Below are positions 8,783-59,176 of a stretch of DNA of 64,000 bases, in pieces. The DNA is from Eledone cirrhosa (lineage: Eukaryota), in NCBI GenBank assembly GCA_964016885.1, contig OZ024740.1, positions 256,742,001-256,806,000 of the forward strand, written 5' to 3'. The notes beneath the pieces were generated by a model. That model had not been told where the DNA came from. It did not search any database and saw only the letters and a program-made list of their open reading frames with translations. The translations under genes were made by a program, and so were the position numbers. Each line of letters opens with the position of its first letter. The stretch's first letter is position 1.

Positions 8783-8955
8783 ATAGGAACAAGTAAGACC
8801 CCGACGGCTGAGCTCAAGCCGTTTCGACGGCTAATTCTGGACATCGAAACGGCTTGAGCTCAGCCATCGGGGTCTTACTTGTTCCTATTACCCACTCTAC
8901 TACCCTAAGTATTGAGTACTTTGGTGCGTTATGGTCCACCTGGTTCCTTACCACA
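8783..8955. mobile_element. Fold-back element: 45-bp inverted arms (8783-8827 and 8844-8888), 16-nt loop and a 3' tail; probable PLE terminal-repeat relic
   Basis: The arms pair with one mismatch and each carries GAAAC-GGCT-TGAGCTC-AGCC-RTC, the stem-III half of a hammerhead. The tail AAGTATTGAGTAC...TTATGGTCCACC is shared with 34860 and partly with 20950. Flanked by (TA)n. Confidence 0.7.
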
Positions 8956-9348
8956 TCTCCTTCGTTATATATATATATATGCGAATTGGAAGAGTCGTGA
9001 AAACGCCGGATAGAATACTTCATGGTATTCGTTCTGGTTCTCTACTCTCTGTCAACTTTACCTTTCATCCATTCGAGGTCGATAAAAAAGTATCAATCTA
9101 TTACTGGGATGGATTCTTCCACTATATATATTTCTCGTTTCCTCTCTAGCACTATCTATCTTTCTCTTGGAAGAAATCTGCTGTATCCTGACCTGGAGAT
9201 GGATGGGCCCCGCCTCGCTTTAAAATACCCTAGAAACGCGGTATCGGGAGTTACGGGACCATACGTACAAATAGAATTTCGACCAATTGAAACGACTTTC
9301 CTTCCGTAGAAATCATTACTATCTGAACTATATTATGTAACTATTCAA

Positions 9349-9533
9349 GGGCGGTGGATTGGCAGTATCGGTAGAGGGTCGGACGCCAAGCTTTCCAGCA
9401 TAGTTACTTCCCTTTACGATCTGAGTTCAAATCCCGCCGAGGTTGACTTCACCTTTCATCCTTACGGGGTCGATAAAATAAAGTACCAGTAATGCACTGG
9501 GTAATTGCTGGCCTTGTGCCTAAAGTAGAAACA
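9349..9533 (+). mobile_element. tRNA-derived SINE family A, full length with 17-bp target-site duplication (TSD)
   Basis: A-box-like TGGCAGTATCGG, B-box GAGTTCAAATCC and central CCTTTCATCCTTACGGGGTCGATAAAATAAAGTACCAG (resembles the Deu/Nin-type conserved SINE domain). TSD ATTATGTAACTATTCAA lies at 9332-9348 and 9534-9550. Confidence 0.92.
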
Positions 9534-9779
9534 ATTATGTAACTATTCAATATATTGAGTACGTTATGTAACTGATATCTCTTTCATTTATACACACACA
9601 CACACACACACACACACACACACATATATATATATTCATATATATATATACATTACTCTTTACCTGTTTCATCCATCCGCCTGAGACCATGTTGGGGCAC
9701 CACCCTTATTGATTCACTTTCTATACCAAGCCTGCGTTGGAGATCCATTGATATAGGAGAGAATTCGTTGTTGCTGCCC

Positions 9780-10516
9780 TTAGGTTACCATTATTCAGTG
9801 CTGCGGGTTCATTTGGGATCTTGGATAGCGGAGTGTCAAAATGCTTCTTGAAAAACCTCTAGTCCACACCATTTTGTTCCCTCAAGTGTCTTGGCAGCTT
9901 ATGAAAGAGGTGGGTACCTTTGAACCTTAGGCTATTGCAATATATACTCCTTACTTTAGTTTTGTCAGCCTCTCCTAGTAGCCCATCTTCATTGTTGCAA
10001 CTCTCTTGCATGGGTTGTTTCAAATTCCATGAATAGTTTGAAACTATGGGGTCATCACGGCTGGAAGCAATAGTCTAGTCGGCTTAGGACAAATGTCCTT
10101 CATAGTACCAACATGGTTTCTCGGTCTCTTGTCTTGAAAGCCCCCAAGATCCAGCCAGCGAGTTGTCTGCACATTGTTGCCATTTTTATGATGAGTGAAT
10201 TAAATGATGCATCTACGCTCATGTCTATATATAGCTCTCGTATCGATTTTGACACGGGGATTTCGATCCCTTCTTGTCCTTGTGTTTGCAGACTGATATC
10301 GTAGGGCTTGAATATTTCCAGCATTAAATTGCACGTTGTTGTCCTCAGGCCATTTACATAGGCATCCACATCTTATTGTAAAAGAGTAGGGTTAGCCGGG
10401 TTCTTGGGTGCCAGTGTTACATTTGTGTCATCAGAATAGCTAATGAGGGGTGTAGGTATATGTACTAAAGAGGGCATGTCTGAAAGAGTCACCCAAAACA
10501 GTACTGGTCCCAATAC
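9780..10516 (-). mobile_element. Decayed CR1/L2-group LINE, RT 3' part
   Basis: The minus strand reads [21 protein letters not shown] (YADD relic), LAGWILGAFKTRDRETML and SLRFKGTHLFHKLPRHLR. Confidence 0.75.
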
Positions 10517-10701
10517 ACACACACACACACACACACACACAGTTATATATATATATATATATATATATATATATATATATATATATACATATAAATAATT
10601 CTATCAAATATATATACATACATATATATATATATATATATATATATATATATATATATATATATATATATATATATATATATATATATATATATAGATG
10701 A

Positions 10702-10750
10702 GATTCTACAGGACTAGAACTGTTTCATTCTTTAGAAATCATCAGGAATG
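10702..10750 (-). ncRNA. Type-I hammerhead ribozyme motif (inverted partner of 10757-10805)
   Basis: The reverse complement reads ATTC-CTGATGA-TTTCTAAAGAAT-GAAA-CAG-TTCTAGTC-CTG-TA-GAAT. Confidence 0.7.
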
Positions 10751-10756
10751 ATTCCT

Positions 10757-55825: not shown

Positions 55826-55962
55826 ATTACAACAACATCCTAATTTTCTTATCAACTAGAAACTCTCGGACTTTCGCAGTTATCGCCCTTGCACCTCTCG
55901 CACGCAATGCGCGTGCGCGTTCGTACGGTTATCCTTCCTGTTCCGTATAACCATGTTCATTA

Positions 55963-56000
55963 CGAGCTGAGGATCCGCTAAGGTGAAACAATTGTTCTCG
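55963..56000 (+). ncRNA. Minimal hammerhead motif downstream of the P2 endonuclease ORF
   Basis: CGAG-CTGAGGA-T-CC-GCTAA-GG-T-GAAA-CAATTG-TT^-CTCG, with a palindromic stem III. It lies about 100 bp before a (TA)n tract. Confidence 0.65.
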
Positions 56001-56678
56001 GTATGGTGAACTAACTGTTGTGTAACCACTTCTACCTAACTCGTCCCATGGACTGAGTGCTCTACCACTACGGACGAATATTACCTTCCAGTGTTCTACC
56101 ACTATATATATATATATATATATATATATATATATATATATATATATATATATATAATAGTTTGTGTAAATACAATATAATTCCTCCTTTGTATCTTAGA
56201 TCTAAAAAGTCCAGGTCAGTTATTGCGCACGTTTTAGAAATAAAAACTTTAATATCCAGATCTAAAATATATATTTACTTTTATCAAGAGGAAAAAAGAA
56301 ATCAACCACCTGCTGGAATTCTTGAGGTGTTAGTTATAATAGTTAAATCACACGGTGCCATCGTAAAGAAGGACAGATATAGTGTATGAGGTAGTCTTAA
56401 ATACACAATCGTATGAACTCGTATAAATGTTGACCCAATATTTTTTGTCAAAGAATTCATTTGTATTTTACCATGTATCTCAACTTTAGTCCTTCAATGA
56501 TAACATATCGATATTTGTAGATGAAGGTTCCATCTTGAATATTAATGATGCGATTGTTATGTTCTGATGTAGGCAAGTGGAAGCATTTATATGATGTACG
56601 CCGTCTTATTTATGTATTTTCATAGAAGGAAGTGTAATTTAATGAAACATAGGTATTATTATTACTAGTATTATTATT

Positions 56679-56770
56679 ACTTTGCCTTTCATCCTTACGG
56701 GGTCGATAAAATAAAGTACCAGTAATGCACTGGGTAATTGCTGGCCTTGTGCCAAAAGTAGAAACAATTA
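56679..56770 (+). mobile_element. SINE family A, 3' half
   Basis: CTTTGCCTTTCATCCTTACGGGGTCGATAAAATAAAGTACCAG...AAAGTAGAAACAATT. Confidence 0.85.
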
Positions 56771-57564
56771 TTACTAGCATTGATTGTTTTGTTTTTCTTT
56801 CCATCTAGAGTTCATTTGAGCTTCTACGTATTAATGTAATATTTAGAATTGTATTGTGAATTTCATCAATTAGAAATGAGTACCCATGTAATAGTCGACT
56901 TCATGAATTTAACTTTAAAAATAGTCGAAAAAATTCGATTTTTACCTGAGTATATACGATATATCTGTTCGTTCCCACTTAACATAAAAATTGTGATGGT
57001 GAGATCTAGGATGACGGATGTTCGATAATATTTCTATTTGATCAAGTTTGACCTCTGTCTAAACTACAAGAATCACAAAGGTTTAACCTTAGCCAATACC
57101 ACAAAGTTTCAAAATCATCCATGTTGACTAGCCACAATTCTTGTTGGATTATAAGTTGATCGTCTGGAAATTCCTTGATGATTTGAGAGGTATAATGAAA
57201 TATTATGTATGTTAGCCTCAACAATCAACGATTCACACTGTGAGTCTTTTTCATAGTAGTGTTCACAGTATGTCTGACTCATCCAAGAGAGAAAGGCACA
57301 TCGCATAATAATTAGGATACTAAGATCATGAACAATCTTTCGATTCTGGATGTCGGGTTGTGTACGTGACCAAGGAATGTTTTACATTTTTTAAAGTTGC
57401 GTAAGTGCATTAGTGCATTGATCTGTATATCTATATATATATGTGTATTGATCTGCATATGTGTGTGTATATATATATATATATGTGTGTGTGTGTGTGT
57501 GTGTGTGTGTGTGTGTGTGTGTGTGTGTGTGTGTGTGTGTGTGTGTGTAGAACCTGATGTAAAT

Positions 57565-57770
57565 CGGGAGGCGGCAACTATTAAAAAAAGATACTCGGTA
57601 CCTCAGTACTCAGTACAGCTGTTAAAAAAAGGTACTAAGTATAGGCATATACATTTTATTACAGAAATGACTTCTACAGGACTAGAACTGCTTCATTCGT
57701 AAGAAATCATCAGGACGTTCCAGATGATATCACGAATGAAACGTTTGTAGAATTCATTTCTATAATAAAA
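57565..57770 (-). mobile_element. Hammerhead fold-back family copy (palindrome 57654-57770; minus-strand motif at 57669-57720)
   Basis: The reverse complement reads GTC-CTGATGA-TTTCTTACGAAT-GAAG-CAG-TTCTAGTC-CTG-TA-GAAGTC, with a degraded inverted partner at 57718-57770. Confidence 0.7.
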
Positions 57771-58764
57771 TGTATATATATATATATATATATATATATA
57801 TATATTCATATATATATATATATATATATATATATATTCATATATATATATATATATGTGTGTGTGTGTATGTAAATATATATATATACATCTATATGTA
57901 TGGATATCTGCCTCTCTCTCTCTCTCTCTCTATATATATATATATATATATATATATATATATATATATACACATATACATATACATACTCGCATATACT
58001 AATTATATCTCTTCCATAAATAATTCTTCAAAACGGTGTAAATACTTCCGTATGTCAACATTGGTATAAATGGAAGTAAGACCACTACCCATATCTCATC
58101 TAAAATAGTTACTCTCACCACATGAAACATATAAAGAAAGTCCATACACCCATCTATAACTCTGTATATAAGCTAATATACGAAATGCTAAAGTTATTCA
58201 CCTCTCCCCTCTCTCTCTCTCTCTCTATATATATATATATATATATATATATATTTAAAAAATAGAGGTGTGACACGCGAGTTGTGATATATTAGTGACG
58301 AGCGCTCTATCTCAAAATTATTTTTGAAAAGCATTAGAAATGCACAACCGGTAAAAACTTAAAACTAAAACTGAATACTAACCAATACTTGTTACTAAGT
58401 TATACTTATTCCTAATTAAACTATTTTTCACTCGGAAAAATTTGTCAGCATTTTCTTTTCCTTTTTACTAATATATATATACATATATATATATATATAT
58501 ACTTATATATATATATATACTTTCTCCACCCAATTCTTTTTATCCCAATAACTTATAATAGTTATTGTTCGCGCTAGCCTGAGGTATCTGGTCTTTAATG
58601 CGAAGAAATACCTATGATGGCTAGTAGATCACTGATGATGGATAGTCCTATTTCTAATTCTTCATTTTAATTTGTATATCATATATATATGTATATATAT
58701 ATTTATATATATATGTATATATGTATATTTATATATTTATATAAATATATTGGTTTCATTAAAA

Positions 58765-59176
58765 AAAAACAGGAGGCCACACTCGTGATGATACTTTCAA
58801 GTTGTATTGTTGAAAAAAGACTATATATATTTTAATGGCCTGGTTACGTAAGATACTGGTGATATCATCAGGTTCCGATTGCGTAATTAGTTAATCAATA
58901 ACGGAATTACGGAATAAATAGAAACAGGAAAAAATATTTGATTTGGGGATGGCTTGCGATCTAATTATTATCATTGTCGCAGCCGATCCCGAATTTACTA
59001 TGTTTTTCTGTTTCTGTTTGTGTTTGCCGTAATTCCTATATTGATAAACTAATTATGCAATCCGAACCTGATGATGTAGCCAGGATCTTAGGTATCCAGG
59101 CCATTGAAATATATATAATGCTTTTGCAGCAATAAATCTTTAAAGGAACATCGCCAATCCGGCCTCCTGTTGTTTT
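58765..59176. repeat. About 410-bp diverged palindrome (old fold-back element) with CTGATGA...GAAA-like motifs in both arms
   Basis: Paired blocks include ACAGGAGGCC/GGCCTCCTGT, AATGGCCTGG/CCAGGCCATT, TCATCAGGTTC/GAACCTGATGA and GGAATTACGG/CCGTAATTCC. A single-arm relative lies at 47075-47208. Confidence 0.8.

Follow-up and report, generated by a model that had tools for sequence, protein, structure and literature searches.

Within a 64,000-nucleotide stretch of the 3.0-Gb Eledone cirrhosa genome (assembly GCA_964016885.1, contig OZ024740.1, positions 256,742,001 to 256,806,000; hereafter the window, to which all coordinates refer), we examined the span from 8,783 to 59,176, where minimal hammerhead ribozyme motifs recur in sequences that we assign mostly to Penelope-like elements (PLEs). 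The GC content of the window is 33%, and (TA)6+ tracts make up 9.0% of it, compared with 4.6% of a 400-kb genome sample composed of forty 10-kb stretches, taken from 18 contigs at round coordinates. A first-pass annotation had called the span a GATA intron, but the exon for the N-terminal GATA zinc finger lies inside it. The C-finger exon is found at window-relative position ~78,020, ~49 kb past the N-finger exon, and a motif search of the 80 kb upstream found no upstream GATA exon. The span comprises the intron that separates the two fingers and also the DNA preceding the N-finger exon, which is probably intronic too. In the following list of features, ribozymes, families (A to J) and clades are predictions, each core is given by the position of its C3 residue, composite features have no strand of their own, and long-tail and short denote two kinds of 3' end; pLTR stands for pseudo-long terminal repeat.

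8786-8965: mini fold-back of family G with (TA)n on both sides, its short end on the left and its long-tail end on the right; of the ribozyme it holds the 3' half only (GAAA, stem III, GUC, 3' strand of stem I)
10697-10893: mini fold-back of family A (Hydra clade) flanked by (TA)37 and (TA)26, with its short arm on the left and its long-tail arm on the right; cores 10745(-) and 10762(+); junction insert that looks templated
13941-14262, + strand: family J pLTR piece, core 13947 with U4C, palindromic stem III, long stem II loop, GUC site
18557-18974: older family C fold-back without ribozyme, long-tail end left, meeting a 1.2-kb compound TA array, short end right
19077-19220: decayed fold-back of the family A lineage, core 19124(-)
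20609-20993: decayed GIY-YIG-like frame (-), recognised by eye and with no Pfam match, next to a half ribozyme (+) that resembles family G
23365-24253, + strand: 5'-truncated family C PLE (Neptune/Nematis type), core 24008, GIY-YIG end at 23369-23737, short 3' end running into (TA)n
28927-29072, + strand: GATA N-terminal zinc-finger exon (PF00320, E 9e-17)
32170-32466: older inverted pair of the family A lineage, core 32399(+) with A9G, 3' side continuing into a restriction-like-endonuclease long interspersed nuclear element (LINE)
40494-40586, + strand: family B hammerhead, core 40507, GUA site, (TA)n at its end
40991-41659, - strand: older fragment of family C that carries a short inverted arm and is nested within the pair of family B copies
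41983-42073, - strand: second family B copy, core 42060, U16.1 lost
47075-47211, + strand: decayed family F hammerhead, core 47096, ending at a 700-bp TA array
52500-52600, - strand: decayed copy of the family A lineage, core 52593
53940-54040, + strand: family E minimal hammerhead with degraded stems, core 53950, four-base palindromic stem III, extra base after A9
54402-54530, - strand: family H hammerhead, core 54483, 11-bp stem II, GUA site, end in (TA)33
55155-55470: family I hammerhead with partial inverted arm, core 55272(+)
55487-56102, + strand: 5'-truncated family D Hydra PLE, endonuclease end, core 55967 with palindromic stem III and GUU site, long-tail end into (TA)27
57552-57772: older fold-back of the family A lineage, core 57713(-) with A15.1G
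58763-59176: old family F inverted pair, cores 58871(-) and 59068(+)

All eleven cores reported in the first-pass annotation were located, its coordinates falling on a motif edge within ~70 nt; their C3 positions are 10745(-), 10762(+), 13947(+), 24008(+), 32399(+), 40507(+), 42060(-), 53950(+), 55272(+), 55967(+) and 57713(-). By their core (CUGANGA/GAAA/UH) and stems I to III they are predicted type I hammerheads, some of them degraded. Exact CUGANGA and GAAA are kept in eight of the 11 and one core residue is changed in three (13947, 32399 and 57713); 42060 lacks U16.1, stem I and II pairs are broken at 53950, and proximal stem I is weak at 24008. They represent seven families, which agrees with the earlier claim of at least five unrelated ones. 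As had also been claimed, most lie beside (TA)n, which adjoins the end of the element or of its partner arm in eight of 11 (the exceptions being 32399, 53950 and 55272), and two (24008 and 55967) lie 3' of GIY-YIG frames. We found further cores at 54483(-), the top-scoring motif of the window, and at 47096(+), 52593(-), 58871(-)/59068(+) and 19124(-), as well as the half ribozyme at 8786-8965. Two other candidates, 38112(+) with no relative in the loci fetched from the genome and 35560(-) with a partial relative only, were not accepted.

Motif counts were far above those of dinucleotide-shuffled sequence, a comparison that the first-pass annotation had singled out. A first descriptor matched four places in the window, whereas 40 shuffles of each kind averaged 0-0.02 matches. 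A second, tuned after the window had been seen and permitting U10.1-U11.1 and self-complementary stem III, gave five exact-core matches (0 in 30 shuffles) and eight with one mismatch (mean 0.1 in 10 shuffles), with 40507 scored in the wrong register. Together the descriptors recover seven of the 11 sites; the other four (24008, 42060, 53950 and 57713) were recognised by inspection and by homology within their families. The Rfam search proposed alongside the shuffling turned out negative, with no match in the window at the gathering score (Hammerhead_1, Hammerhead_3, HH9 and HH10 included) and sub-threshold hammerhead scores of 15.5 bits (HH9), 16 (HH10) and 13.2 (Hammerhead_3); the whole-window E-value list was dominated by miRNA models on microsatellites in the 150 of 502 rows examined. 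Minimum free energy z-scores of the 11 monomers were likewise unremarkable (-1.8 to +1.0). Both results are as expected for minimal motifs of the dimer type (PMC4209133), and an in silico dimer fold of one family A copy gave a two-core form. Among 12 mutually related variants of the A lineage, 94% of stem I cells were paired, compared with 31-49% in slid controls, and two pairs showed double changes, a limited sign of covariation in stem I. Unpaired hammerheads were not depleted on the GATA sense strand (five on +, two on -; small numbers), a hint of little monomer cleavage.

The window is ordinary for its genome, and its location in GATA shows no sign of being special. Exact-core hammerheads numbered 29 in the 400-kb sample (72 per Mb; none in four shuffles with the same descriptor) and five in the window (78 per Mb). 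Since the 29 cluster in 10 of the 40 stretches, extrapolation to ~2 x 10^5 exact cores in the genome (hand-estimated range ~0.7-3.7 x 10^5) gives an order of magnitude only.

The PLE origin proposed in the first-pass annotation was upheld by copies bearing or linked to an open reading frame (ORF), and by their translations six families (A, C, D, H, I and J) belong to PLEs. Family A has 14,713 exact genome matches to a 34-base stretch. Its full-length copy at one fetched locus (L098) consists of a ribozyme, a 758-aa stop-to-stop frame, a 3.7-kb 3' untranslated region (UTR), a second ribozyme and (TA)10, and starts within 6 nt of the start used by the hairpins described below. The frame has RWR, DKT, a CxCX5C linker, CxxC and CxH, which is the Hydra clade definition (PMC8557442), with CxxC and CxH placed around E and N and without CCHH; a first labelling of family A as Neptune was dropped after comparison with the clade definitions in that source. 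In L112, two family H ribozymes enclose a 714-aa Hydra-type frame (RWK, DKT, linker CSCRKPDEC), family I has Hydra-type reverse transcriptase (RT) and endonuclease upstream in L294, family J has a Hydra-type endonuclease upstream in L281 and L289, and family D retains a Hydra-type endonuclease end only. The U4C change is present in nearly all copies of family J (L281-L291), a young family at 93-97% identity. By motifs we place families A, D, H, I and J in the Hydra clade. Family C, with at least 150 genome matches at 100% protein identity and 1217-aa frames in tandem, translates to a CX2-5CxxC linker and a CCHH endonuclease and is by these motifs of the Neptune/Nematis type; no solved structure matched it. 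Full frames in families A, C and H are single ORFs with RT and C-terminal GIY-YIG, although the Pfam GIY-YIG signal is weak (E 0.019 for family A, none for family C). Full-length homologues numbered 610 and 73, and the PLE hallmarks of pLTR, partial tandems, inverted 5' copy and optional tail were all found. Separately, a third PLE type occurs in the genome at L107:148-1866 (RVT_1 and GIY-YIG matches), and a further (TA)n-flanked family, absent from the window, carries a canonical G10.1-C11.1 hammerhead that passes RF00163 (L001-L010).

The copies show four regularities: (TA)n at their 3' ends, discrete ends, a sharp limit at their 5' ends (the 5' cliff) and, in head-to-head pairs, coupling of one long with one short end. 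For family A we evaluated the first 94 of 100 listed places among the 14,713 exact matches, comparing 106 arms with a natural copy. Their 3' ends fall into three clusters (24, 32 and 45 arms) at ~60, 73 and 136 nt from the predicted +1, with two arms ending elsewhere and three reading into the ORF. (TA)4 adjoins 99 of 103 of these ends but only 239 of 7,025 random non-repeat positions (3.4%) and 5-11 of 108 ends of a control repeat; a 190-bp repeat resembling a short interspersed nuclear element (SINE), used as a control, has ends without TA bias. The enrichment of (TA)n flanks that the first-pass annotation proposed to test is present. All 27 terminal ends among 30 family C loci (by inspection) and 44 of 47 family G ends are also TA-rich.

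On the 5' side, the ends of 33 family A arms lie no more than 3 nt from the predicted +1; another 23 arms end at +4 to +12 and six further in, three reach -30 to -4 and 41 are longer. TATAAA stands at -29/-30 in three family A subfamilies despite their differing spacer and stem I, and the sequence at +1 resembles an initiator. In family G, 40 of 47 bystander arms start at -7 to +17 of a site that lies inside stem II and 29-31 nt below a TATTTA box (after correction, by inspection, of three long natural copies that the script had mis-scored). Since this start lies within stem II, the cliff tracks the TATA-like box and not the ribozyme edge, and it probably marks a transcription start ~30 nt below the box. 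A G precedes 15 of 22 fold-back arms starting at +1 and one of five single arms. No RNA dataset was listed as containing a match to the family A promoter stretch, and contigs of three runs of unspecified kind, all from one study and possibly from the sample used for the assembly, were not counted as support; in them the 5' cliff has loose ends and the long end is followed by (TA)n, a pattern that cannot reveal where an RNA starts. TATA and initiator elements have been described in rotifer PLE pLTRs (PMC3846280) and a TATA-less internal promoter in Drosophila Penelope (PMC2377424).

All 55 head-to-head pairs combine one long-tail and one short end (37 of 37 in family A, 18 of 18 in family G), and the ends also differed in 10 family C pairs inspected. 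The two arms lie within 60 nt of each other in 28 of the 37 family A pairs. Genome-wide, junction patterns of the A type, which cover several subfamilies and a few other families, occur 5,335 times (reversed control, 1), and those of family G 4,426 times (reversed control, 0). The arms of these mini hairpins are exact sub-sequences of the pLTR, are not in tandem and begin below the TATA-like box. Their junctions show microhomology or locally templated inserts and vary widely, some junction strings recurring. In 28 mini pairs the short arm reached further 5' in 18 and the long arm in six, with four ties. Where the short arm extends further, neither arm can be a copy of the other, and two syntheses are needed.

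We consider it probable that each hairpin consists of two cDNAs, one primed on either side of a break in (TA)n, that were then joined head to head. The enzyme of the element would cut both strands of a (TA)n tract, and RNA would be copied from each broken end, with priming at the distal (tail) site from one end and at a proximal site, within the pLTR, from the other. Each cDNA would extend toward the 5' end of the RNA, and the two would then be linked head to head by end joining that uses microhomology or templated inserts. If copying starts in the pLTR at the transcript 5' end, cDNAs of 60-136 nt would stop at the transcription start, and the product would be a promoterless hairpin, probably a dead end and not a self-propagating retrozyme. 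In a pre-mRNA the arms would pair with each other and hide the ribozyme, and cleavage by the ribozymes would depend mainly on dimers or on help from a protein. The double priming at one break, the cliff as a transcription start, the end joining and the fate of the hairpins are inferences. A PLE protein studied in vitro cleaved both strands and extended them, with two internal starts bounding the tail; it is predicted to be dimeric, and its ribozyme is protein-assisted and dispensable for insertion (PMC11167929). More tentatively, and leaning slightly against it, we advance a stronger form in which a dimer carries out obligate coupled double priming at (TA)n, priming on the 5' pLTR mass-produces hairpins that map promoters, and the promoter of family G lies inside its U3-A8 hammerhead. 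If so, only read-through tandem transcripts of family G would carry a whole ribozyme and, with intact cores on the order of 10^5, the genome would be among the most ribozyme-dense described.

Several observations weigh against this proposal. It is drawn from sequence, including what it says of transcript starts, cleavage and integration. Families B, E, F and G have not been tied to an intact ORF; no PLE frame was found in the 12 family F loci fetched, and the Hydra fragments that adjoin family G and B copies in L129, L109 and L304 are suggestive only of a family link. Stems II and III are nearly invariant across the 12 related A-lineage rows and do not covary. Family C has no 5' cliff (5' calls for its long copies were faulty where alignments broke at low-complexity DNA, and were not used), and family D has scattered 5' ends and a TATA-like box at -21 from C3. 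The G before +1 could derive from a cap or from templated inserts, which yield the same letter. One family C pair, in a duplicated region, uses two longer sites, and a set of top hits, biased to full long arms, held five pairs in which the long arm reached further, one in which the short arm did, 12 ties and two same-type neighbours. Many junctions have spacers of 3-4 nt that are compatible with snap-back of a single cDNA.

This last point bears on the strongest alternative, which we regard as unlikely, that the inverted arm arises by snap-back self-priming of antisense RNA or of the first cDNA, after which the endonuclease trims one end. Self-priming of antisense RNA was proposed for rotifer Penelopes from palindromes at head-to-head junctions (PMC3846280), and here too many junctions are near-perfect palindromes, the two arms share private variants and several of the 3-4 nt spacers would fit a hairpin loop. 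Snap-back of fixed polarity, however, predicts that the same arm always extends further 5', and both arrangements occur (18 and six of 28). Short 3' sites are also used by arms without a nearby partner, the 5' ends of the arms of long copies differ by kilobases, and an antisense 3' end that falls 30 nt below a sense TATA box is left unexplained. A second alternative, to which we give less credence still, concerns the cliff itself, which might be a structure-set RT stop or an RNA processing site. In families A and B (the B set being biased by the query) the cliff does fall at the edge where stem I begins on its 5' side, but in family G 50-60 nt separate it from stem I and its distance below a TATA-like box is once more ~30 nt, and in family A the predicted cleavage site is 46 nt downstream of it. 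It is very improbable that the hairpins are independent non-autonomous elements, retrozyme-like or MITE-like (miniature inverted-repeat transposable elements), that amplify as units and expand TA, for although short copies number thousands, some junction strings recur and true tandem hammerhead arrays exist elsewhere in the genome (L133, L122), the arms are exact sub-sequences of ORF-bearing pLTRs with the same 3' ends and no TATA box, the junctions are highly varied, the window sites include no tandem arrays and TA array length shows no trend. The short retrozyme-like derivatives envisaged in the first-pass annotation are better described as pLTR pieces of PLEs, probably produced by double priming.

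The same annotation had suggested that these elements target or expand TA microsatellites. Targeting is supported by the 3' ends (99 of 103 against 3.4%), and expansion by insertion is not supported. In the 400-kb sample 64 of 357 TA arrays (18%) adjoin a recognisable PLE end, against two of 200 controls; the corresponding counts are 39 of 221 in 200 kb of neighbouring DNA and 15 of 79 in the window, all of them lower bounds from a library of 20 entries. By array length class the shares are 45 of 232, 11 of 83, seven of 37 and one of five, and a share of ~18% that does not rise with length fits targeting and not expansion. Within the window 43% of TA bases lie at PLE ends, a figure driven by two long arrays. 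The 3' UTR of family A is itself TA/TG-rich and degenerate, measures 1,389-3,668 nt in four arms (L098, L104, L105) and is 98% identical between two arms of one insertion, an identity which indicates that the element carries this microsatellite-rich UTR with it. Interrupted periodic TA arrays lie beside L016, L023, L028, L033 and L188, some on both sides, and in one of them the interruption resembles the tail of the element; they could be long target duplications or products of reiterative copying.

Other repeats in the window complete the picture. The two family B copies belong to a tail-to-tail inverted duplication that includes flanks (40373-42193) and is not a head-to-head PLE fold-back. 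Together with a second such duplication (34364-34796; identities of 89% and 99%, respectively) it is centred on TA-rich DNA and includes flanking non-element sequence, and both perhaps reflect repair of (TA)n hairpin breaks. The LINE at 32431-34480, which we take from its motifs to be Dong/R4-like, has RVT_1 matches and an A-rich then (TAA)n end, with a further fragment at 27006-27535. Other LINE-type RT fragments lie at 6892-8522, 10100-10372, 26170-26776 (zf-RVT at 26237-26773) and 44370-44708. The 190-bp SINE-like repeat is present in nine copies (4131-4276, 5885-6075, 9350-9541, 13485-13671, 28428-28543, 35755-35953, 42617-42777, 56679-56787 and 62993-63055), and a long low-complexity minisatellite fills 1-2400. 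Elsewhere in the genome, tandem hammerhead arrays at L133:1040-2700 (~310-bp period), L122:8900-9900 (~430 bp), L056 and L180, with 466 bp as a third period, are candidates for true non-LTR retrozymes, and the L133 ribozyme resembles family A in stem II.

The genome holds very young, intact Hydra- and Neptune-type elements together with roughly ten thousand minimal insertion products. The ends of these products give sharp predictions, namely one long and one short end and a 5' end at the predicted start, so the mechanism is testable. Hairpins of this kind will be mistaken in annotation for miRNA precursors, SINEs or MITEs, and a microsatellite-rich 3' UTR offers one route by which PLEs may spread simple-repeat DNA.

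Much of what we describe has precedents, since pLTR ribozymes, (TA)n preference, inverted copies, one-sided tails, opposite-strand pairs, U3-A8 and U10.1-U11.1 are already published. Dimeric PLE hammerheads are said to have been treated by Lunse et al. in 2017. Whether the families had been catalogued was left undecided in the first-pass annotation; the element type has been, in octopus as Hydra-1_Obim, with (TA)n preference and a hammerhead ribozyme (HHR) (PMC8557442 Files S1/S2), and the families themselves may already be held in Repbase, Dfam or bioRxiv supplements. In the literature searched, which left most subscription papers, Repbase and Dfam outside, we found no account of start-site-anchored mini fold-backs, of strict long and short coupling or of a promoter inside a ribozyme. 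The available part of a study of Octopus vulgaris reports 31 recently active Penelope-like families and mentions neither ribozymes nor Hydra (PMC13282606).

(TA)n insertion and canonical hammerheads were reported for Hydra clade PLEs (PMC8557442). Hydra-1_Obim has in common with the elements described here the C-terminal GIY-YIG, RW(K/R), DKT, CxCX5C linker, CxxC and CxH, as well as a hammerhead in the pLTR and (TA)n insertion, and the Hydra-1_oBim ribozyme likewise has A-U at 10.1-11.1 (PMC8557442 supplement), a likeness of features in the supplement listing. Published Hydra PLEs are generally <3 kb and comprise few families (PMC8557442), whereas family A reaches ~6 kb through its 1.4-3.7 kb 3' UTR, has at least 14,713 exact pLTR matches and coexists with several other Hydra families. 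For the 1217-aa frame of family C, of the Neptune/Nematis type, the best named relative is an Octopus vulgaris RT protein at 69%. The PLE minimal hammerheads of PMC4209133 are also type I, with palindromic stem III, mostly single and with a U3-A8 core variant, which recurs in our long natural family G copies beside a long stem II and a GUC site. In contrast to those, many of our families replace G10.1-C11.1 by a U at 11.1 opposite U, A or G; U10.1-U11.1 is tolerated in hammerheads (PMC3088659). Opposite-strand pairs 100-700 bp apart were ascribed to truncated PLEs (PMC4209133), and the present pairs are closer (28 of 37 within 60 nt). The extrapolated ~10^5 cores per genome compare with 4,000-9,000 in that study, obtained with another descriptor.

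Non-LTR retrozymes are likewise non-coding, pLTR-derived and equipped with type I hammerheads (PMC7229834; bioRxiv 10.64898/2026.07.22.740005), but they form head-to-tail units of ~300 bp that give circular RNA, whereas the window elements are single or head to head; head-to-tail hammerhead tandems were absent among the window sites and present elsewhere (L133, L122). The origin of tandem and inverted PLE insertions, of the one-sided tail and of the microsatellite preference is listed among open questions (PMC8557442). The closest parallel to the double priming that we propose is PAc Poseidon in vitro, where two internal priming sites also bound the tail, both strands are extended at an AT-rich target, the protein is a predicted dimer and the ribozyme is protein-assisted (PMC11167929). 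Start sites of PAc Poseidon were alike on both strands, and the available text does not address their pairing, whereas the Eledone pairs join one long and one short end strictly, in 55 of 55.

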